DNA from: Parcubacteria group bacterium
GTDB taxonomy: Bacteria; Patescibacteriota; Minisyncoccia; JACPHC01
Assembly (NCBI GenBank): GCA_016188775.1
Contig: JACPHC010000003.1
Coordinates: 344-64,343, forward strand
Length of the DNA stretch: 64,000 bases
Direction: 5' to 3'
A program made the position numbers and the translations under genes. Under the pieces are notes generated by a model. It ran no database searches, was not told where the DNA came from, and saw only the letters and a list, made by a program, of their open reading frames with translations. Of this stretch, positions 2,032 to 56,950 are shown in pieces (the stretch's first letter is position 1; each line of letters starts with the position of its first letter).

Positions 2032-4932
2032 ATGTTCAATAAACACAAAAACGCCGGTTTCGCGACCTTGCTGACAATAGTAATTATTTTAGGCCTTAGC
2101 CTGATTATCGTCAGCGGTTTTTCCGTTGCCAGTCTGTCTAATATCCGTGAATCCAAACGCGCTATTAACTCTTCTAAAACTCAATACGTCGCCGAGGCTG
2201 GGATCGAAGACAGTCTTTATCGGATTATAGCCGGGAAACAATACACGGCGACTAATAATTTAGCGGTTGGCGAAGGAACCGCCATCACTAACATTACCGA
2301 TGTTTCCGGCAATAAAATTATCACTTCTCTGGGCAACCGAGAAAATATTTTTAGAAAACTGGAAACAAAATTATCCGTTTCCACTCAAAGCGTTCAATTT
2401 TTCTACGGCGCTCAAATCGGCGAAGGGGGCGCCACTCTTAATAATGGCGCCGAAATCAATGGCAATGTCTATTCCAACGGCAATATTGTAATGACTGCCA
2501 ACGCTAAAATTAGCGGCGGCGCTATTGTGGCCGGCGGCATCGCCCCAACGCCCGATCAGCAATGGACCATTGGAAATTCCGATTTTCCTTTTGGACTGAC
2601 CACTGGCACAACCGCCATCACCGTTGATGAGCCGGGCGATATCGGCGACTATAACGCATTAACTTTGGGTTCTGACGGACTAGCCCGGATCAGCTATTAC
2701 GACGCGTCCAATAATGATCTTAAATACGTCCGTTGTACTTCAGCCGACTGTGTTTCAAAAAATATTACTACAATTGATTCTAGCGGCGATGTCGGATTTC
2801 GTTATACTTCCATTGCCATTGCCCTGGATGGATTGGCCCGAATCAGTTATTACAATAATACTAACGGCGACCTAAAATACGTTCAATGCGCCAATGACGA
2901 CTGCACGACAAAAAATATCGCCACTATTGATTCCAGTGGCGATGTCGGCCAATTCAACTCTCTGGCTTTAGGCACTGACGGATTGGCCCGAATCAGCTAT
3001 TACGCCGTCTCGGGCGGCAATCTTAAATTCCTTCACTGTTTGAACGATAACTGTTCATTGCGAAACACTTACACTGTTGACTCAATTGGCGATGTGGGCA
3101 AATACACTTCAATAGTCTTGGATCAAAACAACATCGCGATGATCAGTTATCTTGACGAAACCAATGATGATTTAAAATTTACCCAATGTTTAAATGTTGA
3201 TTGCTCCGCGGTCAATAATTACATCGTTGACTCAACCGGCGATGTCGGCCAATTCAAAACTTCCATCGCTCTTGGGTCTGACGAACTGGCCCGAATCAGT
3301 TATTATGACGACACGGGTAAGGATCTTAAATACGCTCAATGTTTAAACATCAGTTGCACGCTTAAAAATATAACTATTGTGGACTCGGCAGATCAAGTTG
3401 GAAAATACAGCTCGCTTCGACTTAATCCGGCTGACGGATTGGCCCGAATTTCTTATTATGACGCGACCAACGGCGCTGCTAAATTCGCCCGATGCTTAAA
3501 CGATTCTTGCTCCCAAAAAAATATTTCCACTCCGGATACCACCGGCAATGTCGGGCTTTACACTTCTTTGGCGATGGCTCAAGACGGCTTTGGCCAAATC
3601 AGTTATCGCGATGACACGAATCAGGATTTAAAATTTCTCAAATGCGCTGATCCGGATTGTAATCCGGGACAAACCACCGGCGACGCGGCTCAAAGTTTTA
3701 TTCCGTCAGCCACTAATCTTTTGCGTAAAATCAGCCTCAATATCAAAAAAATCGGCAGTCCGGGTGATGCCACCGTCAGGATAATGGCCAATAAATCTCC
3801 ACAAAATGTTCCGGATAAAGATAATACATTAACCACTGGCACGCTTTATTCTTCGATGGTCACTGGCAGTTATGGCTGGGTGGACGCGGCTTTTGTCACT
3901 AATCCGACTTTAAATATCGGACAAACTTATTGGATTGTTATTGACGCGGTTAATGATTCCAATAATTATTGGGTTTGGGCTAAAGATAATACCGACGCTT
4001 ATGTTTCCGGCACTGGTAAATTCGCTTTAAATTGGGATATTTCGCCCAATAACTGGTCAAGCGCGGGCGGCGATCTTGATTTTAAAACTTGGATGGCCGG
4101 AACTGTGACGAAAATAGATGGTGGCGTTGTTTCCGACGCGGCTCAAGCCAATACTTTAATCAACACCAAAATCTGCGGGGACGCTTATTTTCAAGCCATT
4201 GACGCTTTTTCGCTCAATTTCGTCAATAATCCGACCAATCCCGATTGCGCTAATCCTTTAACTCCGGGCATGTCTTTTCCCGGTTCCTCCGACCCTTCTC
4301 CGCTGGCTATGCCTATTTCCGACGGCCAAATTGACGCGTGGAAAACCGACGCCCAAGCCGGCGGCGTTATTGCCGGAGATTACAACGTGACTTCTGATGT
4401 CAGTCTTGGTCCGAAAAAAATCACCGGCAATCTTAATATGACCAGTAACAATAGAACTCTGACCGTCACCGGAACAATTTATATCGCGGGCAATATAGAT
4501 ATTGCCAACAATTCAAGAATCCGCTGCGACGCTTCTTACGGGATAAATTCATGCGTTGTTGTGGCGGACGGTTGGATTCATATTTCCAATAACGGACAAT
4601 TCGCCGGATCGGGTCAGGCCGGCAGTTATATTATGCTGCTGACGACCGCTCCCTGCAAAGGAACCGGTTTTTCCAATCCGCCAACGCCTTGCGCCTCCGC
4701 CCACCATGAAGCCAGCGTTGACCTTCATAACAGCGCCACCGGAATAATTTTTTACGCCAAAAACGGACTGATTAATCTTCATAACACAGTTAATGTCACG
4801 GAATTGTCGTCTTTTAAACTGGCGCTGGATAACAACGCCGTGATAAATTACGAACAAGGACTGCAAAACGCTCAGTTCACTTCCGGCCCAAGCGCGGGCT
4901 ATAAAATCGAATACTGGAAAGAAGTGCCTTAA
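2032..4932 (+). CDS. Large pilus-associated protein: pilin-like N-terminal helix, eight tandem ~44-aa Cys-containing repeats (propeller-like) and a C-terminal beta-helix-like region; putative tip adhesin
   Basis: MFNKHKNAGFATLLTIVIILGL is a pilin-like N-terminus. The repeat unit is GDVGxYTS(I/L)AL..DGLARISYYDxTNxDLKYxxCxNxxC..KNI..IDS, eight copies. The ORF-track start at 1966 (TTG) lies inside a MITE fragment, so the ATG at 2032 is preferred. Confidence 0.6.
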   Translation: MFNKHKNAGFATLLTIVIILGLSLIIVSGFSVASLSNIRESKRAINSSKTQYVAEAGIEDSLYRIIAGKQYTATNNLAVGEGTAITNITDVSGNKIITSLGNRENIFRKLETKLSVSTQSVQFFYGAQIGEGGATLNNGAEINGNVYSNGNIVMTANAKISGGAIVAGGIAPTPDQQWTIGNSDFPFGLTTGTTAITVDEPGDIGDYNALTLGSDGLARISYYDASNNDLKYVRCTSADCVSKNITTIDSSGDVGFRYTSIAIALDGLARISYYNNTNGDLKYVQCANDDCTTKNIATIDSSGDVGQFNSLALGTDGLARISYYAVSGGNLKFLHCLNDNCSLRNTYTVDSIGDVGKYTSIVLDQNNIAMISYLDETNDDLKFTQCLNVDCSAVNNYIVDSTGDVGQFKTSIALGSDELARISYYDDTGKDLKYAQCLNISCTLKNITIVDSADQVGKYSSLRLNPADGLARISYYDATNGAAKFARCLNDSCSQKNISTPDTTGNVGLYTSLAMAQDGFGQISYRDDTNQDLKFLKCADPDCNPGQTTGDAAQSFIPSATNLLRKISLNIKKIGSPGDATVRIMANKSPQNVPDKDNTLTTGTLYSSMVTGSYGWVDAAFVTNPTLNIGQTYWIVIDAVNDSNNYWVWAKDNTDAYVSGTGKFALNWDISPNNWSSAGGDLDFKTWMAGTVTKIDGGVVSDAAQANTLINTKICGDAYFQAIDAFSLNFVNNPTNPDCANPLTPGMSFPGSSDPSPLAMPISDGQIDAWKTDAQAGGVIAGDYNVTSDVSLGPKKITGNLNMTSNNRTLTVTGTIYIAGNIDIANNSRIRCDASYGINSCVVVADGWIHISNNGQFAGSGQAGSYIMLLTTAPCKGTGFSNPPTPCASAHHEASVDLHNSATGIIFYAKNGLINLHNTVNVTELSSFKLALDNNAVINYEQGLQNAQFTSGPSAGYKIEYWKEVP
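2631..3670 (+). repeat. Eight tandem 132-nt coding repeats inside the large pilus-associated gene
   Basis: Recurring GACGGATTGGCCCGAATCAG(C/T)TATTAC at 132-nt spacing (around 2679, 2830, 2983, 3284, 3436). Confidence 0.75.
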
Positions 4933-5670: not shown

Positions 5671-6753
5671 ATGTCATTTTTTTCTTTCAAAGAAACCGCT
5701 ATCGGCCTTGATATTTCCGATTATTCGATTAAAGCCGTTTATTTAAAAAATACGCGCCAAGGTAAAATTATTAAAAATCTTTTTGAACTAGCCATACCGC
5801 CGGGCTTAATTAATCAAGGAGAAATTCAAAATCAGGATAAACTTTTTGAAATTTTTAAAGAATTTTTAAAAAAAATTAAGGCCAGCCGAATTAAAACGCC
5901 CTATATCGTCTCTTCTTTGCCGGAAGAAAAATCATTTATCTCGGTTATTCAGCTCCCCAAAATGGAAGAGAAAGAAATAGGATCGGCTCTTGGTTTTGAA
6001 ATTGAGGCTAATGTTCCTTACGCCTTTCAAGAAGTTTATTTTGACTGGAAAAGCCTGCCTTCGGCCAGCCTCGATCATCTGGATATTCTGGTCGCGGCTT
6101 CGCCTAAAAAAATAGTTGATTCTTATTTTTCTCTTCTCAAGCGCCTAAAACTTATATCGGTCGCTTTTGAAATTGAATCGCAAGCCATTGCCAGAGCTTT
6201 AATCAAAAATGAAATCCAAGAAAAACCGATATTGCTTATTGATTTAGGCGCGACCCGCACCAGTTTCATTATTTTTTCCGGCGGCTCTATTCGTTTTACT
6301 TCTTCCATCCCCGTCTCGTCCAAAGATTTAACTTCAGCTATCGCTGACGTCCTAAAAATTCCGGAAAATGAAGCCGAAATTTTAAAAATCAAACACGGGC
6401 TTGATAAAAAAGGGACGGAAGGAATTAAAATATTTGACGCGATTCTGCCGCGCCTAACCGCTCTCATTGAAAAAATTCAAAATCTCATTATTTTTTACCA
6501 AAGCCACGCCAAACACGAACACGGCCGGATTTTGGAATTCGAAAATATTCTTCTTTCCGGCGGAGGCGCCAATCTGGCCGGCCTTTCTCAATATTTAAAA
6601 GAGGAATTAAAACGAAAAATTGGATTAGGCAACCCTTTCGTTAATCTGGCAAAATCGCCAACAAAATTTTTATCTGATCTGGCGCCTGATAAGGCCGTCG
6701 CCTTCACCACCGCCATTGGCCTGGCTTTAAGAAACATTGAAACGGAAATTTAA
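5671..6753 (+). CDS. pilM: Type IV pilus assembly protein PilM (actin-like ATPase)
   Basis: N-terminus AIGLDISDYSIKAVYL, a typical PilM start, plus an actin-fold sugar-kinase-like pattern. Confidence 0.8.
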   Translation: MSFFSFKETAIGLDISDYSIKAVYLKNTRQGKIIKNLFELAIPPGLINQGEIQNQDKLFEIFKEFLKKIKASRIKTPYIVSSLPEEKSFISVIQLPKMEEKEIGSALGFEIEANVPYAFQEVYFDWKSLPSASLDHLDILVAASPKKIVDSYFSLLKRLKLISVAFEIESQAIARALIKNEIQEKPILLIDLGATRTSFIIFSGGSIRFTSSIPVSSKDLTSAIADVLKIPENEAEILKIKHGLDKKGTEGIKIFDAILPRLTALIEKIQNLIIFYQSHAKHEHGRILEFENILLSGGGANLAGLSQYLKEELKRKIGLGNPFVNLAKSPTKFLSDLAPDKAVAFTTAIGLALRNIETEI

Positions 6754-7758: not shown

Positions 7759-8145
7759 ATGAGCCGAAAAATAGAAGATCAATTCGAAAAAACTCAAAAA
7801 GATCTGCCGGAAATTAAAAACGCCTTATTCGATCCGGAAAAATTAGTGGATCTGGTGGTGACCTTGGAAGACATAGCGGCCGAAACATCAACCCAGCTTA
7901 ATATCGGCGAATCAAACACGCAGCAAAAATTCATCAATTTCTCCGTCAATCTCTGGGGAAATTTTACTAATTTTTACCGTTTTATAAAAAAAATAGAAAA
8001 TCTGCCGTATCTCGATCAAATTGACACTATCGCGATTAAAAAACTGGAACCGCAGGAAATTGCCGTTCGCAATCAAAACGGAGGCCCGATTCTCGGATCG
8101 GGCGATATTGGAGCGGTTATGAAATTTAAAATATTTACTCAATGA
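7759..8145 (+). CDS. pilO: PilO-like pilus assembly protein (periplasmic domain). The N-terminal transmembrane segment is encoded in frame upstream, from 7573, without a canonical start codon.
   Basis: Position in the pilM-pilN-pilO order. The upstream in-frame translation gives ...ILISGLSALFVVIILFFLAIFPL (a TM helix) with no ATG, GTG or TTG between the stop at 7570 and 7759. Confidence 0.5.
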   Translation: MSRKIEDQFEKTQKDLPEIKNALFDPEKLVDLVVTLEDIAAETSTQLNIGESNTQQKFINFSVNLWGNFTNFYRFIKKIENLPYLDQIDTIAIKKLEPQEIAVRNQNGGPILGSGDIGAVMKFKIFTQ

Positions 8146-46240: not shown

Positions 46241-47014
46241 ATGAAAAATATAAAAACGTTTGTATCCTCTCTTTTTTTAACATTTATTTTTACTCATATT
46301 GCTTTTGCCGGCACTGCAACGCTTTCTTGGAACGCAAATACGGAAACTGATTTAGCGGGTTATAAAATATATTACGGGACATTGCCCAGAACCAATTCTT
46401 GTCCATTAGGCGGCTATCCAAACAATATCAACGCAGGCAATGTCACGTCTTATGTTTTTAGCAATTTAACTGACGGTCAAACATATTATTTCTCTATTAC
46501 GGCTTACGATGCTTCAAGCAATGAAAGTTGTTTTTCAAGCGAAGTCAGTAAATATATTCCAGTGCCAAATATATATATTTCAAATGTTAAATTTATTCCC
46601 GTTATTGAGAGCGCGACAAGTATTTCTGGTAAAAATTTCACAATAACAATTTTTAATGCCGGAACAACAACCCAAGTCGCTCAATTTACGACTCAACTCG
46701 ATCAATCAGGAAATTTAGTAATGCCTGCGAGCATAAATATAGAAAGCGGCGTTTACGATATCCTTACTTACTCGCCGACATATCTTAAAAAGAAAAAAAA
46801 TAATACTGTTTTGTCATCCAATTCAATCACTTCTTTGCCAACATTGCCGGCTGGCGACTTAAATAATGACAATACCATAAACTCGCTTGATTGGTCATTG
46901 ATGAGTCCTAAATGGTTTAGCCAGGACGCAATAGCGGATATTAACGGAGATAATATAATCAATGCTATTGATTATAGTTTTTTAAACAAAAATTGGTGGT
47001 TGGCGGGGGATTAA
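46241..47014 (+). CDS. Secreted protein with an FN3-like domain and C-terminal dockerin-like repeats
   Basis: Signal peptide; DLNNDNTINSLD and DINGDNIINAIDYSFL resemble dockerin Ca-binding repeats. Confidence 0.55.
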   Translation: MKNIKTFVSSLFLTFIFTHIAFAGTATLSWNANTETDLAGYKIYYGTLPRTNSCPLGGYPNNINAGNVTSYVFSNLTDGQTYYFSITAYDASSNESCFSSEVSKYIPVPNIYISNVKFIPVIESATSISGKNFTITIFNAGTTTQVAQFTTQLDQSGNLVMPASINIESGVYDILTYSPTYLKKKKNNTVLSSNSITSLPTLPAGDLNNDNTINSLDWSLMSPKWFSQDAIADINGDNIINAIDYSFLNKNWWLAGD

Positions 47015-47029
47015 AACAAAATAATTTTT

Positions 47030-47662
47030 ATGAATCAATTCATTAATATAACAAAAGGCAAAACAAGATGGTTTTTTATTGTGGTCGTATTTTTGACGGG
47101 TGTTGGTTTTACTAGTCTTATTTATATTTCTTTACTCTCGACTTCTTTATATATAGAAGGCTTAAATGAATATATTTATAAAAAACAGCCCTTAGTGGCG
47201 CTTTCGCTTATCACTCCAAAAGTTGAAAACTATAAAATTGGCGATCTTGTTGAGGTCGGCATTTTATTAGAAAATGGACAAAAAAAGACGACCGGAGTTG
47301 ATATAGTCTTAACTTATGATCCTCAAATAGTGGAACTTCAAGGCAAAAATTCGCAGATTAAACAAAACGGCAAAACGGAGCCGAAAAATTTTCTTGATGT
47401 TGAATTTTCTTCTTTTGATTTTTTCCCTTATTTTAATTTAAATACTAAAAATGGAAAAATATATTTTTCTGCTTTAGCTAGGCCTTTAAGAGAAGTAGTG
47501 GGAAAAGGAGTAATAGCCACATTAACTTTTAAGGTTATTAAAACAGGAGAAACGAGTATTAATTTAGTTTTTGAAAAGGGCCTTTCTTCGGATTCTAACG
47601 TGGCTTACGCCGGCCGAGATATTTTAAAGCAGGTGCGCAATCTTAATCTTGTTATTAAATGA
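47030..47662 (+). CDS. Membrane-anchored cohesin-like domain protein
   Basis: N-terminal TM segment and a beta-sandwich cohesin-like pattern (VEVGILLENGQKKTTGVDIVLTYDPQIVEL ... VIATLTFKVIKTGETSINL). Confidence 0.45.
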   Translation: MNQFINITKGKTRWFFIVVVFLTGVGFTSLIYISLLSTSLYIEGLNEYIYKKQPLVALSLITPKVENYKIGDLVEVGILLENGQKKTTGVDIVLTYDPQIVELQGKNSQIKQNGKTEPKNFLDVEFSSFDFFPYFNLNTKNGKIYFSALARPLREVVGKGVIATLTFKVIKTGETSINLVFEKGLSSDSNVAYAGRDILKQVRNLNLVIK

Positions 47663-49233
47663 ATTATTTGTTGGGTTTTAAAAATAAAAACCGCCTTTTT
47701 TATTGTCTTATTTTTTTATTTTTTCTACCCGGCATAACGGCAAAAGCGGCTACTTTGTCTTTATCGCCAGCTTCCAGTTCTCAGACAATTGGAGACATTT
47801 TCTCAGTCAATATTTTATTGGACACTCAAGCCGCGGGGATTGATGGCGCGGATATCCTTTATTTAAATTTTAACCCGGTTTTGCTGGAAGTTCAGGATGA
47901 TAATATTGGGGTTACCGGTGTTCAAATTGCCCCGGGCGTTTTAATGATGAATACTTTGGCGAATTCCGCGGATAATGCTACCGGCAGAATCAGTTTTTCT
48001 CAAATTCCGGATTTTGGAAACGCTTTTACCGGAAATGGCGCGTTGGCCACTGTTCGTTTTAAGGCTCTTGCCGCTGGAACTGCGACGGTAACTTTTAATT
48101 TTACCCCTGGCGCGACTAACGACACCAACGCAGCTTCCGGTGGAACTGATATTTTAACCAGCGCTACTAATGGAAATTATACTTTAATCGTTAATCCGCC
48201 ACCATCAGGAGGTGGTGGAGGTGGAGGTGGAGGTGGTGGAGGTGGGGGAGGATCGGATACTACGCCTCCTTCCGCCGTCGCTAATTTAACTGCTTCAAAT
48301 CCCACTGAAACTTCCGTAATTCTTAAATGGATTGCTCCCGGAGATGATGGGGCAAATGGAACAGCTTCAAGTTACGATATACGATATTCGTCAACTTCAA
48401 TCATTACCGATGCTAATTGGATTTCCGCTGTTCAGGCGACAGGCGAACCTATTCCTCAAACGGCCGGCGCTTCCCAATCTTATACTTTAGTCGGACTTAC
48501 GCCATCTAAAACTTATTTCGCCGCAATAAAAACGACTGATGAGCAGTCAAATACCTCCGCTCTTTCCAATATTGCGACATTTCAAACAAATAGTCCGCCT
48601 CCTCCGCCAGATGGAGGCGGCAGTGGTGAAGGTTATGTATCTCCCGCCTCTGACACTTCGCCTCCTGCAAATGTAAAAAATCTTATTTTAACCCCTGGCG
48701 TTAAACGGATTAAGCTTGCGTGGTTAAATCCCAAAAGCGATCCTGATTGGGTAAGAACGATGATTGTAAGAAAAATCGGTTCCGCTCCTATAAGCACTTT
48801 AGACGGCGTTAAAATTTATGAAGGAACAGAAGGAACATTTATTGATTTAAATTTGGAAAAGAATAAGGAATATTTTTATTCCGTTTTTACCCTTGACCTC
48901 GTGCCGAATTATTCCAAAGGAGTAATGGCAAAGGGAATTGCTTTAACTAATCCTTCTTTTTCTTTTACTAAAAACCTTCTTCGTGGTTCAGTCAGCGAAG
49001 AAGTTAAAAATCTTCAAATTCTTCTTAACAATCTTGGTTTTCAGGTAGCGCGATCAGGCAGAGGTTCTTCGGGTAATGAAGTAAACTATTTCGGCAACTT
49101 AACCAAGCAAGCTGTTATTAAATTCCAGAATCATTATCGCGCTGAAATTTTAACTCCTGCCGGATTAACCAAAGGCACGGGTTATGTTGGACCGCTAACA
49201 AGAGCTAAATTGAATATTTTAGCTGAAAAATAA
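47659..49233 (+). CDS. Cell-surface protein: signal peptide, cohesin-like domain, poly-Gly linker, FN3 domains and a C-terminal peptidoglycan-binding domain
   Basis: SVNILLDTQAAGIDGADILYLNFNPVLLEV (cohesin-like); 13 consecutive Gly; TPPSAVANLTAS (FN3 start); C-terminal LQILLNNLGF ... LTKQAVIKFQ (PG_binding_1-like). Confidence 0.6.
   Translation: MNYLLGFKNKNRLFYCLIFLFFLPGITAKAATLSLSPASSSQTIGDIFSVNILLDTQAAGIDGADILYLNFNPVLLEVQDDNIGVTGVQIAPGVLMMNTLANSADNATGRISFSQIPDFGNAFTGNGALATVRFKALAAGTATVTFNFTPGATNDTNAASGGTDILTSATNGNYTLIVNPPPSGGGGGGGGGGGGGGGSDTTPPSAVANLTASNPTETSVILKWIAPGDDGANGTASSYDIRYSSTSIITDANWISAVQATGEPIPQTAGASQSYTLVGLTPSKTYFAAIKTTDEQSNTSALSNIATFQTNSPPPPPDGGGSGEGYVSPASDTSPPANVKNLILTPGVKRIKLAWLNPKSDPDWVRTMIVRKIGSAPISTLDGVKIYEGTEGTFIDLNLEKNKEYFYSVFTLDLVPNYSKGVMAKGIALTNPSFSFTKNLLRGSVSEEVKNLQILLNNLGFQVARSGRGSSGNEVNYFGNLTKQAVIKFQNHYRAEILTPAGLTKGTGYVGPLTRAKLNILAEK
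48205..48251 (+). repeat. GGA/GGT simple sequence repeat encoding a poly-Gly linker
   Basis: GGAGGTGGTGGAGGTGGAGGTGGAGGTGGTGGAGGTGGGGGAGGA. Confidence 0.8.
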
Positions 49234-49266: not shown

Positions 49267-50394
49267 CTATAAAACTACTAATCCCGTCGGCGCGGAAGGC
49301 GGCGTGGTGTCGGAAGTGGTCAAGAGATACCCATTTGCATTTACATTGCCATTCTCATCAATCACATATAAGTAAGTGCTAATAAAATCACTAAAAGAAC
49401 CCTGATTCAAAGTTATGATAATAGATGTATTTGACCAAGCAGACGGGATTTGGATTTCGCACTTATTACGAATGGTAGAAGTTGCACCAGCACAAACTTC
49501 AACTCTTGCCCAAGAGTTATCAATATATAAATCATCCCAATAAGTACTAACAGCTTGTCCCGTGGGGACATTAACTAATCCATATCCAAAATGAGGAGTT
49601 GATAAATATGTACCTGTTTGGGATATTGTAACACCAGTTTTACTTCTTCTAACGACAGTCCCATCACTATGATAAGCAACCCAATTTGCAACTCCATCTG
49701 AAGAATTTGCATCTGTTGAGTCTCGGAACTCTATTTCAAACCGTACCCACTGTGCAGGTCTTATCCAATCATCCCAAGTAGAAGGAATCCATTCTCCGCC
49801 TGTAGAGCCGGTTCTAAACTCATAATAGTTACCACTTGAGCCTATTGTGCCATCAGCTTCCCACCAAGATTGTAAAGCTAACACCGGTTCATCTGCATGT
49901 GCAGGGCCTGAACCAATATGAATTAATTTAATCTGCCAATCTACTAAACTTTGTAAACTTACCATACTCACATAAAGATACCCAGAAATGTATTTTATCC
50001 CTGTAGTCGTCCAAGCATTTAATTTGTAAAAACCATTATTACCTGGACCAAAACCAGTACCTGGATACACCATCCTATCTACTACTGACAAACTTGAACG
50101 ACTATTTCTTTGATTTTTATTTGTGAATTTTGCATCCGCCTGATCATCCCTATTAGTCCAATAACCAGTTGATTCTACATCATTACCATTTGTACCATTT
50201 TCAAAATTCTCCCATTTCAATGGCGCAGCAGTTGCCTTTGTCCCAAACCCACTCCCCGCAATTGTCACTATCCCGTTATGAACAAATGCGCCGCCTGTAT
50301 TCGTGATCTGCACCGCCGCGCTTGCAAAACCCACTCCCCCAAAAAGCCCGAGGGAAATTATGGCGAAGTAAATTAGGTTTTTTGTTTTGCGCAT
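49267..50394 (-). CDS. Secreted surface protein, paralogue 1 (conserved 5' and 3' boxes, variable core; ends ...TTPPSAPTGLVVL*)
   Basis: Signal peptide MRKTKNLIYFAIISLGLFGGVGFASA. The N-terminal ~55 aa and C-terminal ~45 aa are near-identical to 51414..52481. GC is higher than the local average. Confidence 0.6.
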   Translation of the reverse strand: MRKTKNLIYFAIISLGLFGGVGFASAAVQITNTGGAFVHNGIVTIAGSGFGTKATAAPLKWENFENGTNGNDVESTGYWTNRDDQADAKFTNKNQRNSRSSLSVVDRMVYPGTGFGPGNNGFYKLNAWTTTGIKYISGYLYVSMVSLQSLVDWQIKLIHIGSGPAHADEPVLALQSWWEADGTIGSSGNYYEFRTGSTGGEWIPSTWDDWIRPAQWVRFEIEFRDSTDANSSDGVANWVAYHSDGTVVRRSKTGVTISQTGTYLSTPHFGYGLVNVPTGQAVSTYWDDLYIDNSWARVEVCAGATSTIRNKCEIQIPSAWSNTSIIITLNQGSFSDFISTYLYVIDENGNVNANGYLLTTSDTTPPSAPTGLVVL

Positions 50395-50523
50395 GTTTTT
50401 AGTTTACCACCAATCCCGTCGGCGCCGCGGGCGGGGTGGTGTCGGGCAGTTTTTCGCGCGTTTTAATATATTATTTTGCTATTCCAAATTTTTTCGGATT
50501 TTCTAAAACACCTTTAACTCCTC

Positions 50524-50883
50524 TTAAGAAAACATCAAAATCAACCAATTTATCATTGATGATTTTATAATTCTGTAACCAGCCATCTCTTGTAGCGCGG
50601 TATCGGCAAAGTGTTTGTCAACAATGTGATATTCTCCGATTTTTCTTGCCATCTCTTTGTATTCCGAAGCCTGGGCGCCGGGAATTCTCGATAATATGTG
50701 GGCGCTGATATGGAACACTCCTTCCAATGCTCGATGGAGGTGGAATTGAGCTAATTTAAAACCAACTCCTTTTTCAAATTCTTCAAACGACAATTGCGCG
50801 AGCTTCTCAAGTTCTTTAATTTCTCCTTGAATTCCGTTTATTCTTTTTAGAATAATGTCTCTATCAAGAAAAAGTTTTGTCAT
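50524..50883 (-). CDS. hepT: HepT-like (DUF86) toxin of a HepT/MntA toxin-antitoxin pair
   Basis: Size and a C-terminal RxxxxHxY-like region (ARKIGEYHIV); 4-nt overlap with the upstream MntA gene. Confidence 0.6.
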   Translation of the reverse strand: MTKLFLDRDIILKRINGIQGEIKELEKLAQLSFEEFEKGVGFKLAQFHLHRALEGVFHISAHILSRIPGAQASEYKEMARKIGEYHIVDKHFADTALQEMAGYRIIKSSMINWLILMFS

Positions 50884-51290
50884 ATTCTTTGAAGTATGGC
50901 TTTATGGAACTCTGATCGCAATGGAGCAAAATCGGCATATTCCTCCATTGTCGTTTCCAAGAAATTTGAGATTATTTTCTGATCTCCAAGATAGAGCAAA
51001 ACGCCGTCTTGGGCGATGCGATGCTTAATTTGTAAATCAGCTTGTTCAACAAAGACAATATCAATATTGATTAGGGCGTTAATTTGTTTAGACAGTATTT
51101 CATAAAGCTTATTATAGATTTTTTTTCTTTCCGCGGCGTCTCTTATCATTTTTTTATTTTTAACCAAAACGGCAAAGTCAAAATCGCTGGTTTTATTTGC
51201 CGTTCCCTGGGCTTGTGAACCAAACAAAAAAATGCCGGCAATGCCAAGTTCTTCCATTTTTTCTTTTTGAAATTTAAATTTCATAAACAT
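50880..51290 (-). CDS. mntA: MntA-like minimal nucleotidyltransferase (antitoxin)
   Basis: GS-x9-13-DxD motif: LFGSQAQGTANKTSDFDFAV. Confidence 0.75.
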   Translation of the reverse strand: MFMKFKFQKEKMEELGIAGIFLFGSQAQGTANKTSDFDFAVLVKNKKMIRDAAERKKIYNKLYEILSKQINALINIDIVFVEQADLQIKHRIAQDGVLLYLGDQKIISNFLETTMEEYADFAPLRSEFHKAILQRI

Positions 51291-51317
51291 AATATACCAT
51301 AGTAATTATTACCAGTT

Positions 51318-51413
51318 CAACTTTAATTTACCGCCAATCCCGCCCGCCTTCATTACATTACGGCCCGCTTCGCCTAAGCTCCAGCGAGGCGAGCGAGGCC
51401 AGTCGGCCTTCAA
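51318..51413. repeat. GC-rich stacked scars of the surface-protein 3' module (near-identical to 52515-52600)
   Basis: AATCCCGCCCGCCTTCA ... TTACGGCCCGCTTCGCCTAAGCTCCAGCGAGGCGAGCGAGGCCAGTCGGCCT is shared by both loci. Confidence 0.7.
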
Positions 51414-52481
51414 TTAATTTACGGCGAGGCCCGTCGGCGCGGAAGGCGGGGCGGTGTCGGGAGTGGTCAAGAGATACCCATTTGCATTTACATTGCCATT
51501 CGCATCAAATACGTAGAGGTAGGCATTATTTTGAATTTCTAGATTTCCTTGGTTTATAGTTATTGTAATGGAGGTATCTGACCAGGCTAATGGAATCTGA
51601 ACCTCCCGAATAGTGGAGGCCGCCAAAGTTGGAGCATTCCCAATCTCAGCCCTAGCCCACGTGTTATCTATATATATGTTATCCGCATATGTAATATCAT
51701 CAGGTCTACCCGTAGCACCACCTGCCGCGGCTGCACCTACCCATCCTCCAATATGGGGTTCCTGAATTCCTGGGGCATTTGTGTCGGCAAAACGAAGCCC
51801 AGTTCCGCTTGATATAAGGACATTATCCATATATATATACGCAGAACCATTAGCTCCATATACCCCATTATTATAATCTATATCTAATATAACCTTAAAA
51901 TCGTACCATTTGTCCTTTAACGCAGAAAAATTTCCCCATGAGGTTTCGGGCGACAGATTACCTAAATATATTTTATTAAGCTCATGTCTTGCGTCTAACG
52001 CAAAATTCGGGGGCGCGCCATCCCAATTATCGCCCCACATGAATATTTTTTCGTTTCCAGTGCCTCCGCTTGTGTCAAAAGTAAAATTAGGATCCCATTT
52101 CCATTTAAAAAAGGCTATTGTATGGTTGAGCGTTTGCCCCACAGGTTTTGATGCCCATCTTGTTCCATAGTTTGCGAATGATTCAAATTGCAGGAATCTT
52201 GTTGAGACTGCGCTTATTTGGTTAGGGCCTGTTGCGTAAACATTGTTACCAATAACACTATTATAATTAGCTGCGACCGTGCCTGTTTCAGCATCATCCC
52301 ACCATAGCGGCGCAGCTATTGCCTTTGTCCCAAACCCGCTCCCCGCAATTGTCACTATCCCGTTATGAACAAATGCGCCGCCTGTATTCGTGATCTGCGC
52401 CGCCGCGCTTGCAAAACCCGCTCCCCCGAAAAGCCCGAGGGAAATTATGGCGAGACAAATTATGTTTTTTGATTTGTTCAT
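51414..52481 (-). CDS. Secreted surface protein, paralogue 2 (ends ...DTAPPSAPTGLAVN*)
   Basis: Signal peptide MNKSKNIICLAIISLGLFGGAGFASA. Termini are shared with paralogue 1; the core is divergent. Confidence 0.6.
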   Translation of the reverse strand: MNKSKNIICLAIISLGLFGGAGFASAAAQITNTGGAFVHNGIVTIAGSGFGTKAIAAPLWWDDAETGTVAANYNSVIGNNVYATGPNQISAVSTRFLQFESFANYGTRWASKPVGQTLNHTIAFFKWKWDPNFTFDTSGGTGNEKIFMWGDNWDGAPPNFALDARHELNKIYLGNLSPETSWGNFSALKDKWYDFKVILDIDYNNGVYGANGSAYIYMDNVLISSGTGLRFADTNAPGIQEPHIGGWVGAAAAGGATGRPDDITYADNIYIDNTWARAEIGNAPTLAASTIREVQIPLAWSDTSITITINQGNLEIQNNAYLYVFDANGNVNANGYLLTTPDTAPPSAPTGLAVN

Positions 52482-52514
52482 AAATTTGACCCTAAACTAA
52501 TGACCGCTTTCTAC

Positions 52515-52600
52515 TGTACCGCTAATCCCGCCCGCCTTCAATTAATTTACGGCCCGCTTCGCCTAAGCTCCAGCGAGGCGAGCGAGGCCAGTCGGCCTGC
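52515..52600. repeat. GC-rich 3' module scar (copy of 51318-51413)
   Basis: About 75 nt near-identical to the 51340-51413 copy. Confidence 0.7.
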
Positions 52601-52604
52601 AATC

Positions 52605-52907
52605 TTAATATATATATGGGTTGTATATTTCTACGTCTGATTGAAGGTTTATGATTCCCGAGACACCGAAAATTACTATCCTTGCCTCTGAAGCAGTCAC
52701 GGCCTCTCTGAAACTTCCAGGCCCATTATCATTTAAGTTTGTAACTCTAATAACTTGTCCTCCCCTGCCGCCCACGCTATTTGCTCCAAAACCTTCAGCC
52801 CCTGGAAAAGCAACTAACGCAAATGAACTTTTGGAAATTCCAAAGACGCCAAGCAGGATAATGATATTAATAATTAAAATTTTGCTTTTTAATTTCATAT
52901 TTCCCAC
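52605..52907 (-). pseudogene. N-terminal fragment (100 aa) of a pectate-lyase-like secreted protein
   Basis: Signal peptide plus AFPGAEGFGANSVGGRGGQVIRVTNLNDNGPGSFREAV (the pectate lyase N-terminal motif), then a premature stop followed by the module scar. Confidence 0.5.
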
Positions 52908-54103
52908 GCTTCAATAATATTGTGTCTGCCAACGTTTTTCATTTTAACGGATAAAGAAACAATTTTAAAATTAAAATCTTTATAATTTTCCATAAAAATT
53001 TTATAATTCTTTTCTTTAAATTGCAGCGGCTGGGCTTTAACTTCTATCGCTTCCTTTTCTTTAATAATAAAATCAATTTCATTTTTCTGGACTGTGCGCC
53101 AAAATTTTATATCATTTGAATCATATTTATCAAGAAGCTGGCGGAAAACAGCGTTTTCAAGAAGTATGCCCTTATCTTCCCTTGTGTCATAAGGAGAAAA
53201 ATTATCAACCAAAAAATTTCTTAATCCCAAGTCGTAAAAATAAACCTTGGGCATCTTGGTTAGCTCTTTTCTTACATTTTTATAAAAAGGGTTTATCAAT
53301 TTTATATGAAATGATTTTTGCATTACATATAAATAATGATCTACGGCGGTTTTTGAAACTCCCAAAGTATTAGCTAATTCCGAAGCATTAACGAGACTGC
53401 CAACCTGAACGGCAAAAATCTTGAATAATTTATAAAAAATTTCTTCTTGCCGAATATGGGCCTCAAAAATATCTTTTTTGATATACGAATAAACTATGTC
53501 TCTCAAAATATCTTGCTTTTCCGATAAAGGAGCTAAAACCACCCGCGGATAGCCGCCGTAAATAATATACTCTCTATAATATAGCTCAATTTTTTCTTTT
53601 TCAGACAATGTTAATTTTTCAAAATCTTTTTTGGATAATTCTTCTTCCTCTTTAAAGCGCAGAAATTCCCTGAAAGAAACGGTGAAAACATTGAATATCT
53701 TTTTTCTTCCGGCCAGCGAATCTTTAAATTTTTTATCCAAATAAAACGCGGATGAGCCGGAAGCAATAATTTTAATAGCGCCGGCATACTCGTCATAAAA
53801 ATATTTTAAAAAATTTGAAGGATTTTTGAGATATTGAATTTCATCAATAAAAATAAAGTTTTTCTTTTTTAAATCAACGGGGAAAATTTTAAAAAGATTT
53901 TTAGGCGATTCATTAAGCAGAATCAGATAATCAGGATCTTCTAAATTCAAAAAATAGGTTTTTTTATTCTCTTGTTCAAGAATGCTTTGAAGTTGTTTTA
54001 AAATTGTAGTTTTTCCCGCTTGTCTTGAGCCAATAAAAATAAGGATTTCCGGATCCTCAAGGTATTTTCGGGCTTTTAATGTAATATCTCTGATAATAGT
54101 CAT
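52895..54103 (-). CDS. AAA+ ATPase with C-terminal DUF4143-type domain (COG1373-like)
   Basis: Walker A GSRQAGKTT and Walker B IFIDEIQ; 402 aa. Confidence 0.7.
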   Translation of the reverse strand: MTIIRDITLKARKYLEDPEILIFIGSRQAGKTTILKQLQSILEQENKKTYFLNLEDPDYLILLNESPKNLFKIFPVDLKKKNFIFIDEIQYLKNPSNFLKYFYDEYAGAIKIIASGSSAFYLDKKFKDSLAGRKKIFNVFTVSFREFLRFKEEEELSKKDFEKLTLSEKEKIELYYREYIIYGGYPRVVLAPLSEKQDILRDIVYSYIKKDIFEAHIRQEEIFYKLFKIFAVQVGSLVNASELANTLGVSKTAVDHYLYVMQKSFHIKLINPFYKNVRKELTKMPKVYFYDLGLRNFLVDNFSPYDTREDKGILLENAVFRQLLDKYDSNDIKFWRTVQKNEIDFIIKEKEAIEVKAQPLQFKEKNYKIFMENYKDFNFKIVSLSVKMKNVGRHNIIEAWEI

Positions 54104-54144: not shown

Positions 54145-54195
54145 TTTCTATTGTACCACTAATCCCGCCCGCCTGAGAGACCCTTTCGCCTGCAA
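54145..54195. repeat. GC-rich 3' module scar (variant copy)
   Basis: CTAATCCCGCCCGCCTGAGAGACCCTTTCGCCTGCAATTAATTTACGG. Confidence 0.6.
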
Positions 54196-55962
54196 TTAAT
54201 TTACGGCTAGGCCAGTCGGCGCCGCGGGCGGGGTAGTGTCCTGCTGTGCTCCTGACACATATTCATACGCGCCAATATCCCAAGCCAATCCTTGTGGGCG
54301 AGTTACCTTGTCGAAGTCTACGGCGATAGAGAGGCCGTAAATATTTTGGAAGGTTTGGTAAACCGAGGAAACAAGGCCCGCATTTACAGCGGAACTTCCC
54401 GATTGGAGATGGAAATCATTTGCCGATGAGTTTACAAATAACGGATCGGCATTCAAAGAATTCGCGCCCTTACTGGTTGCCGACTGGAAAGTGGCAAGCG
54501 AGGTATAGGTATTCGCGCCCCAAATCGTCTTAAAACCACCTCCAAAAAGAAAGTTATCAACCGTTGAGTTTGCGGCGTTTATCGATGAAGCAAGAAATAT
54601 ATCGCTTCCCGCTCCCAGTCCCGCGATAATGTTATTAGCCATGAAAAAAGAGCCGCTGTCGGGGGAATTCACGCCAGCGTCCACATCATAAAATGTATTG
54701 TTGATGACATAGCGGTTCCGCCCTCCCCAGGTGGTCATGGCCGCTCCGTTTGAATAAGCGTTATTGGGATCGAAAGCCGGACTGTGAATGCCATGAATCA
54801 CGTTGCCGATAAAATACAAATTCTGACCAAAGCCATCTCCATCCGGCCCGCTTGTGCTGGCGCCGCCGATACCCGTGTGGCAATCATACAAATTGTTATA
54901 GAGAAACCACACCCGTTCCGGACCGTACTGATACCCGGCGCAATTGCCCCCGGACGACGATGGGCTTGGCACAATTCCGTAGGCGGTATTTCGCGAGAAA
55001 ACCACATCGGTTGCCTGCTTCGTCCAAAATCCGGTCTGTTTATGGTGATGAGATGTATTTCCCCCAAAATAAATATGATGAGTTCGCGACGTAACTGAAT
55101 CAGAATCCGCCTTGCTGCCGCCGTTGACTTGAATGCCGTCGCCGCTGCAGCGCGCAAGTTCATTATCGAGCACCCAAACATTGTCAGCATGCCCAATTCC
55201 GACACAATGAACATCTTGGTCGATCGTTGTGGCGATGTCGCCATTGTCATGGATATAATTACTGTACACCAAAATATTCGAAATTCGGTTAGTATCAGAG
55301 CTTGCGATCTCGACTCCGCCGCCCACGAGGTTCCCATGCGCGTCGCTAAAACGAAGCGCGAGGTGATCTGACGGCGATACGATAACGAAACTCCCGGACG
55401 AGCCTCCGGAAAGGTCGCCGTCCGCATCGGCAAATTCAAGATTTTCGAAGATAGCATAAGTTCCCTTGACTTGCATGTTTGCAATAATTTTTGGCTTTTC
55501 TGAATCGCTAACCCCCCGGATAAAGACCGGACTTGTCGAGGTTCCGTTCGCGGTAATGATATTAGGATTGGTATAGCTGCATATCCCTGAGCAATCCCGA
55601 TATATATTTCCATGCATTTCGACAACGGATCCTTCCGGAATGGGTTTAGGCGGACTTTTTCGCGGTAAGGCCGGTGTTCCATAGAGGTTATTTGAATCAG
55701 TAGCGCCGGCGCATGAAGTGCAGACGAAATAAAAGCCGGGGGTGGGCAATGTCCATGGATTCGGGGCTACGGGCGCGGTTTCTGCGATGCCAAACGGCGG
55801 ATTTGGAATGCCGACAGGAGGAATATACGCGTGAACCGTACTTCCCAAAACGATGATGCTTGCCAAGACTAGGAACAACGAAGCGAGCCAAAGCGATATT
55901 TGTTTTATAAGCCAACGGAAAGGAAAATAATTTAAATATGAAATATTTGCTTTTTTAAACAT
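54196..55962 (-). CDS. Secreted right-handed beta-helix (pectate-lyase-fold) protein ending in the shared ...DTTPPAAPTGLAVN* module
   Basis: Signal/TM segment, NxDxxH-rich beta-helix repeats (NGDIATTIDQDVHCVGIGHADNVWVLDNE...) and WDIGAYEY near the C-terminus. High GC. Confidence 0.65.
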   Translation of the reverse strand: MFKKANISYLNYFPFRWLIKQISLWLASLFLVLASIIVLGSTVHAYIPPVGIPNPPFGIAETAPVAPNPWTLPTPGFYFVCTSCAGATDSNNLYGTPALPRKSPPKPIPEGSVVEMHGNIYRDCSGICSYTNPNIITANGTSTSPVFIRGVSDSEKPKIIANMQVKGTYAIFENLEFADADGDLSGGSSGSFVIVSPSDHLALRFSDAHGNLVGGGVEIASSDTNRISNILVYSNYIHDNGDIATTIDQDVHCVGIGHADNVWVLDNELARCSGDGIQVNGGSKADSDSVTSRTHHIYFGGNTSHHHKQTGFWTKQATDVVFSRNTAYGIVPSPSSSGGNCAGYQYGPERVWFLYNNLYDCHTGIGGASTSGPDGDGFGQNLYFIGNVIHGIHSPAFDPNNAYSNGAAMTTWGGRNRYVINNTFYDVDAGVNSPDSGSFFMANNIIAGLGAGSDIFLASSINAANSTVDNFLFGGGFKTIWGANTYTSLATFQSATSKGANSLNADPLFVNSSANDFHLQSGSSAVNAGLVSSVYQTFQNIYGLSIAVDFDKVTRPQGLAWDIGAYEYVSGAQQDTTPPAAPTGLAVN

Positions 55963-55984: not shown

Positions 55985-56040
55985 CAAATTTTAATTTACC
56001 GCCAATCCAGTCGGCGTGGCGGGCGGAGTGGTGTCAGGGG
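55985..56040. repeat. 3' module scar upstream of the beta-helix protein gene
   Basis: TTAATTTACCGCCAATCCAGTCGGCGTGGCGGGCGGAGTGGTGTCAGG. Confidence 0.6.
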
Positions 56041-56486: not shown

Positions 56487-56750
56487 TTACAAGTGTTTAT
56501 AAATATCTTTACGGTGATCAATATCAAAAAAGATCACTGTTGTCATGTCTTGAAAATAAAATAAAACTCTATATTGACGAGTAATTCTAAATGAAAAAGC
56601 ATATTCAAGAGAATAAACTTTTTTGATATGTAATCGTGAATCACGCCAGTTATTAACAAAACGCTCCTTTTGGATTTCAAAAAAGCGTTGGATATTTTTT
56701 GGTAATTTAGAAAAATTATGATCAAAATCTTCAGAACAGATTATCCGCAT
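56487..56750 (-). CDS. RelE/ParE-family toxin
   Basis: An 87-aa product with YRVLFYFQDMTTVIFFDIDHRKDIY, the RelE/ParE C-terminal signature. Confidence 0.6.
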   Translation of the reverse strand: MRIICSEDFDHNFSKLPKNIQRFFEIQKERFVNNWRDSRLHIKKVYSLEYAFSFRITRQYRVLFYFQDMTTVIFFDIDHRKDIYKHL

Positions 56751-56950
56751 AATAATCTTGGAGGATATTTTTTTAAGGCTTTCTGATATGAATTTTTAAT
56801 CCGTTCCGGATGCGCGTATTCTTTAATATTTTCTCGTGGAAGAATTAATGTGATTTCCTGACGCAAAAAACGCACTTCTTGCAAAAGAGAATTTAGTGTT
56901 TTATTGATGTTTAATTTATCTTTTTGAATTTTAACAGTCGTTGTATTCAT
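56741..56950 (-). CDS. Putative cognate antitoxin (69 aa)
   Basis: Directly upstream of the toxin with a 10-nt overlap; a palindromic operator lies upstream. Confidence 0.45.
   Translation of the reverse strand: MNTTTVKIQKDKLNINKTLNSLLQEVRFLRQEITLILPRENIKEYAHPERIKNSYQKALKKYPPRLLCG

Follow-up and report, generated by a model that had tools for sequence, protein, structure and literature searches.

Here we describe a toxin–antitoxin (TA) gene pair of the HepT/MntA type that lies within a chromosomal array of genes for predicted secreted enzymes in a metagenome-assembled genome (MAG) named "Parcubacteria group bacterium" at NCBI. The window analyzed, 64,000 nucleotides (nt) of contig JACPHC010000003.1, covers most of the 64.7-kb contig and has a guanine-plus-cytosine (GC) content of 39.4%; the array is surrounded by the chromosomal housekeeping genes for NusA, KsgA, UppS, PNPase and rpsO. 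The TA pair fills the spacer between two array members on the minus strand, paralogue 1 (NCBI locus tag HYV52_01255) and paralogue 2 (HYV52_01270). The gene pair, its 4-nt overlap, its position in the spacer and the tail-like sequence on either side all lie at or within a few bases of where a preliminary description of this DNA had placed them. The segment contains the following features.

49267-50394, minus strand: paralogue 1, 375 amino acids, ending in tail M1
50399-50443, minus strand: orphan tail M2, encoding DTTPPAAPTGLVVN and a stop codon (repeat family D2 and six-frame motif scan)
50471-50883, minus strand: hepT deletion allele (pseudogene), delimited by DNA alignment with contigs L001 and L095 and by tblastn with the intact protein
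50880-51290, minus strand: mntA, an open reading frame (ORF) of 136 amino acids for an MNT-family adenylyltransferase antitoxin
51291-51320, minus strand: promoter-like site directly upstream of mntA (TTGAAC, 18 nt, TG-TATATT; consensus scan)
51324-51351, minus strand: C unit, a degenerate 3' half of the tail with the prefix GAAGGCGGGCGGG, reading RRAGLAVN and a stop codon
51352-51413, minus strand: B unit, a second 3' half of the tail, interrupted by a GC-rich hairpin of ~30 nt
51414-52481, minus strand: paralogue 2, 355 amino acids, with a signal peptide and a predicted jelly-roll polysaccharide-lyase-like core, ending in tail M3
50430-51349, minus strand: the cassette in common with contig L095, comprising the C unit, the promoter-like site, mntA, hepT and the first 14 nt of the orphan tail

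The antitoxin gene mntA (MBI2450951.1) looks intact. Its product matched Polbeta (PF18765, 5.6e-16) and NTP_transf_2 (PF01909, 5.3e-11), passed the NCBIfam equivalog MntA_antitoxin (NF047752) with 77.7 bits against a cut-off of 60, and carries the GSX10DXD motif at residues 24-38 (GSQAQGTANKTSDFD). The likelier start codon is at 51284, two codons inside the ORF (134 amino acids), where the NCBI annotation and the homologues agree. mntA lies upstream of the DUF86 gene hepT on the same strand, and the two genes share the ATGA at 50880-50883; the order is identical in the five homologous loci with gene tables that we read (L007, L008, L013, L014 and L095). Because curated hidden Markov models (HMMs), motifs, gene order and the 4-nt overlap all agree, the pair is supported as a member of the type VII HepT/MntA (class I HEPN/MNT) TA family on sequence grounds. 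This is the assignment first made from the DNA letters, in which the loss of the RX4HXY motif through a 43-nt deletion had been missed. The profiles proposed for checking it gave PF01909 for MntA at the value above and PF01934 for HepT at 1.7e-6 (profile positions 1-87 of 120); PF08780, also proposed for MntA, is actually a HEPN-type toxin family (PMC7641770). The promoter-like site contains the palindrome GGTAATAATTACTATGG, and its position is conserved within a block of ~40 nt upstream of mntA that is common to the L007 and L008 cassettes. It is a candidate mntA promoter, although the consensus scan found no more such sites in the region than in shuffled sequence.

The toxin gene has been damaged by a deletion. 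As now read, the hepT ORF spans 50524-50883 and encodes 119 amino acids annotated as "hypothetical" (MBI2450950.1). The stretch 50883-50572 encodes residues 1-104. After the 43-nt deletion at 50570/50571, a different frame (50569-50474) carries residues 120-151, still at 100% identity, up to the original stop codon at 50471-50473. Residues 105-119 (NRIVHFYADITPEEI) are gone, and with them the histidine and the tyrosine of RX4HXY, while the arginine is kept. The undamaged form is found in L001 (SRR12113422), which like L095 (SRR12113383) is a contig from another sample of the study and the aquifer that yielded the MAG. L001 equals the window base for base over ~1.07 kb covering mntA, hepT, M2 and the first part of paralogue 1, the sole difference being 43 additional nt, with which its hepT encodes 151 amino acids including RNRIVHFY, the RX4HXY signature. 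The 43 nt are likewise present in L095, L007, L008 and L013. There is no microhomology at the deletion junction, which cannot slide in either direction; a junction without repeated sequence means that the deletion cannot be a simple repeat collapse.

HepT homologues are numerous (399 matches, the top ones at 60-82% identity). RNR[IL]VHFY occurs in all 17 aligned homologues (141-154 amino acids), is missing from the window HepT and is kept in 84 of 85 other loci, the sole exception being an arginine-to-cysteine substitution. That protein, encoded at 913-1293 of locus L056, has the catalytic arginine replaced (GYCNRIVHFY) and is perhaps a naturally inactivated toxin, or else a sequencing error. 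The window HepT still matched the HepT-like family PF01934 (28.2 bits, cut-off 23.5), covering only part of the profile as given above, and scored 30.3 bits on NCBIfam HepT_toxin (NF047751, cut-off 60), compared with 66.7 and 68.7 bits, respectively, for the intact sister allele P0001. A phmmer search of the truncated HepT against PDB sequences returned chance matches to ribosomal proteins only; it was uninformative and is not counted against family membership.

In the HepT/MntA family, RX4H is the HEPN RNase site of the toxin, and the GSX10DXD of MntA adds AMP units to the tyrosine of RX4HXY, thereby neutralizing the toxin (PMC7641770). An intact allele at this locus would be expected to work in the same way, with HepT acting as an RNase through RX4H and MntA AMPylating the tyrosine. 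Judging from the lost motif, the window copy probably pairs an intact antitoxin with an inactivated toxin. With a dead toxin, this copy would be unable to act by addiction or abortive infection.

The sequence that borders the pair derives from a feature of the neighboring genes. Members of the array have in common a conserved signal-peptide 5' end in front of jelly-roll or beta-helix lyase-like domains, and they end in a 45-nt 3' tail that encodes DTTPPxAPTGLxVN-COOH. Repeat analysis and a six-frame motif scan located five copies of the tail on the minus strand, namely M2 above and four others; for its 21-nt core, 2 matches were found against 0.00 expected.

49267-49311, minus strand: tail M1, end of paralogue 1
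51414-51458, minus strand: tail M3, end of paralogue 2
54196-54240, minus strand: tail M4, end of the 588-amino-acid beta-helix gene
55991-56035, minus strand: orphan tail M5, preceding the 588-amino-acid beta-helix gene

Both orphans, M2 and M5, closely precede the start codon of a gene that itself ends in a tail. M2, which had been pointed out as a downstream scar of the insertion and proved to be real, begins 27 nt after the original hepT stop and ends 4 nt before the ATG of paralogue 1. A related array that lacks the TA pair was reached through protein matches in the Hainich aquifer (L009), and a second TA-less relative (L010) was found in the same way. Over 48 nt, M2 shares 91.7% identity with a beta-helix gene tail of L009, and the tail-to-ATG junction (GGTAAACTAAA..ATGC.CAAAAC) is conserved there: the M2-paralogue 1 junction reads GGTAAACTAAAAAC-ATGCGCAAAAC, and its L009 counterpart GGTAAACTAAAGGT-ATGCACAAAAC. 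This resemblance suggests that M2 is the native 3' end of the gene, whatever it was, that stood before paralogue 1.

M2 is also in frame with full-length hepT, one TAA lying between the two (GIAK, stop, YIKTREKLPDTTPPAAPTGLVVN, stop; window 50444-50473, minus strand). A read-through fusion of HepT to the orphan tail was considered and set aside; the shared frame is probably a coincidence, since L013 lacks the arrangement.

Paralogues 1 and 2 share their 5' 203 nt (87% identity) and 3' 92 nt (90% identity), and the overall amino acid identity is ~42%. An AlphaFold2 model of paralogue 2 (pLDDT 72, pTM 0.77) has a single low-confidence terminal segment, the tail residues 342-355, with values below 50. 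Foldseek matched the core of the model to X122 domains and to PL36, PL14 and PL7 alginate lyases (7e-8 to 5e-4). The two genes had been described as surface-protein paralogues: the paralogy and the signal peptide stand, a surface location is unproven, and both are predicted to carry a jelly-roll fold resembling polysaccharide lyases behind the signal peptide. The homologue nearest to paralogue 2, at 69% identity, comes from another MAG and ends in PRAPTNLRVQ; PxAPT[GN]LxVx is the ending in dozens of more distant family members from a range of bacteria, the longer relatives running on from there into additional Ig/FN3-like domains. By these comparisons the tail is primarily a protein feature, a C-terminus conserved across phyla. 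It resembles an FN3 A-strand, the first strand of that domain, and may serve as a sorting, docking or strand-complementation tag. The tail peptide ends otherwise unrelated secreted proteins, both jelly-roll lyase-like ones and a beta-helix protein with a choice-of-anchor Q domain, and is also present in the homologues P0122-P0159.

The upstream border at 51318-51413, the second of the two supposed scars, is also genuine tail-derived sequence. The B and C units together make up a composite trailer of ~90 nt after paralogue 2, here called trailer E, which occurs a second time in the array.

52512-52603, minus strand: second copy of trailer E (repeats D5 and D6), fused to a truncated pectate-lyase fragment upstream of paralogue 2

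The B unit is 95% identical to 52541-52603 (repeat D6, 63 nt) and contains an exact 39-mer that occurs twice. Trailer E recurs in part at 54149-54195, after the 588-amino-acid gene. Because it recurs before or after other genes of the array, the upstream scar is not specific to the TA pair, and the supposed bracketing of the insertion by scars is specific in one half only. Trailer E as a whole thus seems not to be a specific mark of the TA insertion, although its C unit forms the left end of the shared cassette.

The C unit gave 4 matches in the window against 0.01 expected. Its copies are at 51324-51351, 52512-52539 and 54149-54176 of the window, at 1805-1835 and 3308-3336 of L009 and at 45-73 of L095; every copy found belongs to an array locus and precedes an ATG by 4-55 nt, and the motif, TGAAGGCGGGCGGGATTRGYGGTA..., is kept in two aquifers. 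A remnant, a recombination site and a regulatory element are all conceivable explanations for it. The fold of trailer E is no better than that of shuffled sequence (z = -1.76), and no match was found in Rfam; a known RNA or a terminator was rejected on these grounds, the number of terminator-like sites also being at chance level. Paralogue 2 is itself flanked by direct copies of trailer E (51324-51414 and 52512-52603), which are 95% identical over 63 nt and 83% over the adjoining 36 nt. Paralogue 2 together with one copy of E may also have been inserted or duplicated by recombination.

The same cassette occurs in at least two contexts, bounded on both sides by tail-derived sequence. In a blastn comparison, L095 48-1010 aligned to window 51349-50430 at 99.6% identity, with 4 mismatches and the 43-nt gap, hepT being intact in L095. 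On the left side, identity ends just before the C unit. On the right flank it ends 14 nt into the tail and gives way to the tail variant DTTPPSPPTNLTVN with its stop and then to a second orphan tail, PAAPTGLVIQ; AbiEi/AbiEii lie further to the right, followed by the beginning of a pectate-lyase gene with only 75% identity to the window fragment. Since identity with L095 breaks inside tail-derived sequence on both sides, recombination within tails is supported. The junctions of the window were independently reproduced by L001 and L002, so the window is not a chimeric assembly. In L013, the closest distinct relative (82% HepT identity), mntA starts 55 nt after the stop codon of a complete beta-helix gene that ends in DTTPPSAPTGLVVQ. 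The suggestion that the pair arrived by recombination at the tail module gains from both loci, the nearly identical L095 cassette with its different flanks and the L013 pair placed directly behind a tail-ended gene. The GC content of the cassette is 35%, compared with 41-45% in the flanking paralogues.

Other members of the TA family are located elsewhere. The homologous pair adjoins ribosomal-protein genes, a DEAD-box helicase gene or pilus genes in L007, L008 and L014, and DNA similarity between these loci and the window extends only from ~40 nt upstream of mntA to the hepT stop codon. Among 80 further metagenome loci (45-75% identity), none had a tail-terminated ORF in its flanks; a general association of HepT/MntA with tail-ended genes was rejected on this count, and the family as a whole has no affinity for tail arrays. 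Carriage by phage was rejected as well, no relative having been found in viral contigs. A synteny search with the paralogue alignment gave no match in JGI metagenomes and, in GTDB genomes, only two Desulfobacterota proteins (a common C-terminal domain). An exact-protein look-up in the contig index found neither the 119-amino-acid HepT nor paralogue 2, both of which are present in NCBI.

Taken together, we consider it probable that this is a standard type VII cassette that was brought into the array by recombination within tail sequences and later disabled by the deletion in its toxin gene. The cassette is a compact minus-strand unit of ~0.9 kb (50430-51349) made up of a putative promoter, mntA and hepT. 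Its left end is the degenerate tail 3' half of the C unit and its right end the first bases of a tail, and M2 retains the native tail-to-ATG junction of paralogue 1. Entry into the array and exchange between genomes would most likely have occurred by recombination in short tail sequences, and the 43-nt deletion would have disabled hepT afterward. Family membership, the deletion, the two contexts and the position of the breakpoints within tails are observed directly; the direction of the recombination, its mechanism, which may have been homologous through 14-25 nt of identity or site-specific, and the loss of toxicity are inferred.

Several observations weigh against this reading. The C unit is not a clean tail half, and it may have a function of its own because its prefix GAAGGCGGGCGGG is conserved in the unrelated aquifer of L009. 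No recombinase was found in or next to the cassette, among the ORFs of 46.2-56.5 kb or among ten further mid-sized ORFs, which together are part of the ORFs of the window. L095 is the one alternative context, with 47 nt of its left flank visible, and instead of a product of transfer between genomes it may represent another locus in the same genome or in that of a close relative. The deletion has no microhomology and could be a minority variant fixed by the assembler; the presumed loss of toxicity, finally, is deduced solely from the missing motif.

The pair could alternatively have landed inside a third tail-ended gene between the two paralogues, of which later deletions removed everything except the last 45 nt, M2. 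The TA-less L009 has just such a tail-ended beta-helix gene between its jelly-roll paralogue and the next gene, and it is the tail of this gene that M2 matches best, M2 being of the PPAAP type found on the 588-amino-acid gene; in L010, an IS1595 element adjoins a truncated paralogue remnant. Such a history, however, calls for two separate deletions that both end precisely at the edge of the cassette or of a tail. Nor does it account for the divergence of L095 only after 14 nt of tail in common with the cassette, or for the common starting codon of the orphan tails M2 and M5. We regard it as possible but rather unlikely.

It could also be argued that the organism has an intact pair, working as an ordinary module for addiction or defense, and that the 43-nt gap is an assembly or consensus artifact or a rare variant. 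Otherwise identical intact alleles do occur in two other samples of the study (L001 and L095), and the deletion is known from assembled sequence, not from reads. But the junction k-mers of a De Bruijn assembly always come from reads, which means that reads bearing the deletion must exist; the junction has no repeat that would cause a collapse; and the deletion is present in the deposited MAG, where it is annotated as a coding sequence of 119 amino acids. An intact pair in this organism is therefore improbable. The preferred account, a recombined cassette with a disabled toxin, fits a wider pattern in the array, to which the following genes belong.

52605-52907, minus strand: truncated pectate-lyase remnant, a 100-amino-acid N-terminal fragment with a signal peptide (PelZ 7-94 of 422)
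52895-54103, minus strand: AAA_14/DUF4143 ATPase, a candidate defense gene (Pfam 1.4e-34 and 7e-30; PADLOC PDC-S01 3.5e-99)
54196-55962, minus strand: beta-helix protein, 588 amino acids, with choice-of-anchor Q right before tail M4 (NCBIfam NF041518, 1.8e-8)

The ATPase gene has a GC content of 30%, compared with 39% for the window. It follows the C unit at 54149-54176, and its stop codon overlaps (ATGA) the start of the truncated pectate-lyase gene, which in turn is fused directly to the second copy of trailer E; no right-hand tail accompanies the ATPase gene in the window. In L009, the gene order is a beta-helix gene with a tail, an AAA_14/DUF4143 ATPase gene with tail remnants on both sides, a jelly-roll paralogue with a tail, a beta-helix gene with a tail and a further beta-helix gene, with no TA pair. 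In L010, the IS1595 transposase gene adjoins the truncated paralogue end with its orphan tail. In L095, AbiEi/AbiEii (1202-2474) lie directly downstream of the HepT/MntA cassette, behind the two orphan tails and before the pectate-lyase start. Equivalent tail junctions in the window, L009, L010 and L095 thus hold the AAA_14/DUF4143 ATPase, AbiE, IS1595, RhuM and a 110-nt palindrome, with remnants of tails beside them, and the GC content swings from 28% to 53% across 49-56 kb of the window. The array is a sink for selfish and defense genes, in which HepT/MntA is one more passenger.

Two further arrangements were seen at tail junctions. L095 carries two TA/defense modules in tandem there. L009 contains three palindromic elements of ~110 nt (~4620-4728, 5890-5996 and 7825-7936) that resemble miniature inverted-repeat transposable elements (MITEs), with the termini CCCGTTAGAAGTTT...AAACTTCTAACGGG, each placed exactly between a tail stop region and the next ATG.

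A more far-reaching reading, which we hold to be doubtful, is that the tail and the C unit form a portable recombination site of an integron-like array without an integrase in bacteria of the candidate phyla radiation (CPR), and that cargo is swapped between genomes at the tail-to-ATG junctions. The cargo would comprise secreted glycan-active enzymes together with HepT/MntA, AbiE, the PDC-S01 ATPase, insertion sequences and MITE-like elements, and the tail peptide might be an undescribed sorting or docking tag. A stricter version, in which the tail and the C unit are a dedicated att-like site and a trans-acting recombinase organizes the cassette array, is very improbable. The shared unit does have the order expected for an integrated circular cassette (site 3' half, cargo, site 5' half), the same junctions hold several kinds of unrelated cargo, and the C unit is conserved between two aquifers at junctions only. 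Against this, no integrase was found nearby or among the scanned ORFs, the tail is primarily a protein C-terminus conserved across phyla, the junctions are heterogeneous (the window ATPase, for example, has no tail on its right), and recombination through short homology fits the data equally well. That the pair is kept because it stabilizes a variable array against deletion, as TA cassettes do in chromosomal integrons and as the preliminary description had suggested, agrees with the recombination-prone, remnant-filled array, with the intact alleles in the population and with the integron analogy drawn from general knowledge, but is highly unlikely for this allele, since loss of the locus cannot be lethal when HepT has no catalytic motif, and the array has been truncated several times anyway (the pectate-lyase fragment and the orphan tails).

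The pair resembles HepT/MntA of Shewanella oneidensis (SO_3166/SO_3165; PMC7641770) in having two small genes with the MNT antitoxin upstream, the domains PF01909/PF18765 and PF01934, GSX10DXD in MntA and, in the intact sister allele, RX4HXY in the form RNRIVHFY; both NCBIfam equivalogs are passed, that of HepT by the intact allele. It differs in that hepT of the window is frameshifted and lacks the motif, and in its host, a Parcubacteria (CPR) MAG. HepT/MntA is among the most abundant TA families, and decayed toxins are common. The TA family at this locus is thus already known and here decayed, and the tail module is the more unusual part.

The setting has partial counterparts in three kinds of known loci. 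Chromosomal integrons such as the Vibrio superintegron carry TA cassettes among their arrays, and the locus shares with them a small TA operon with a promoter-like site of its own, tandem cassettes on the same strand, short repeat borders and a recombination-prone region. Unlike integron arrays, it has no integrase, attI or folded site of the attC type, the repeat is the coding 3' end of the neighboring genes, and the toxin is apparently inactive; the check for an attC-like site returned the coding tail and the GC-rich hairpins of the trailer, with the chance-level fold and the empty Rfam search described above. Contact-dependent inhibition (CDI) and Rhs polymorphic-toxin loci hold displaced "orphan" C-terminal modules. 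The array is similar in that a short conserved coding motif appears to provide homology for recombination and remnants of gene ends pile up after the functional stop, here as tail halves in an A-B-C series behind both paralogue 2 and the 588-amino-acid gene. In contrast to CDI/Rhs loci, its motif is the extreme C-terminus and not a boundary before a variable toxin tip, and its remnants are pieces of 20-60 nt, not toxin-immunity modules. Some genomic islands integrate in the 3' end of a gene and duplicate it, as at att sites of the tRNA/tmRNA type. Direct repeats of a gene 3' end flank the insert here too (GGGATTGGCGGTAAATTAAA on the left and GGGATTGGTGGTAAACTAAA on the right, 18/20 identical), but there is no integrase, the element measures only 0.9 kb and the target is the protein-coding tail of a gene family.

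The locus offers a clean case of what appears to be natural toxin inactivation, in which one 43-nt deletion takes away the catalytic and AMPylation motif while intact alleles persist in the same aquifer, and population-level tests of TA decay in uncultivated CPR bacteria become possible. Its sequence also indicates how a cassette that encodes no recombinase may move, through exchange in very short conserved gene-end sequences of ~14-25 nt. The array is unusual in that unrelated secreted enzymes have a common signal-peptide 5' end and a common C-terminal tail, and it collects defense genes; if the tail were a recombination site or a sorting tag, this would matter for the surface biology and the genome plasticity of CPR bacteria.

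A few further observations concern the tail family and the neighborhood of the array. In L005 (3307-3675 and 3701-4732) and L006 (101-469 and 495-1526), the 69% homologue of paralogue 2 follows right after a small lipoprotein gene, and the FN3 domain of that lipoprotein also begins without its first strand. These genes were binned as Nitrospirae and adjoin a glycosyltransferase cluster; misbinning or gene transfer is possible. At 56487-56750 and 56741-56950 (minus strand), two small ORFs overlap, the first in the order of reading encoding 69 amino acids and the next 87 (ending in ...VIFFDIDHRKDIYKHL). A RelE/ParE-type TA identity was considered for this pair and rejected, the resemblance being by eye only, with no Pfam or NCBIfam match. 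On the plus strand, the genes at 46241-47014, 47030-47662 and 47659-49233 form a cellulosome-like set in this Parcubacterium. In the first product, an FN3 domain that seems to lack its first strand, PxAPTGLxV, begins directly behind the signal peptide (ATLSWNANTETDLAGYKIYYG), and a dockerin forms the end of the protein; two cohesin-domain proteins then follow, one of which combines FN3 with a peptidoglycan-binding domain and 15 consecutive glycines.

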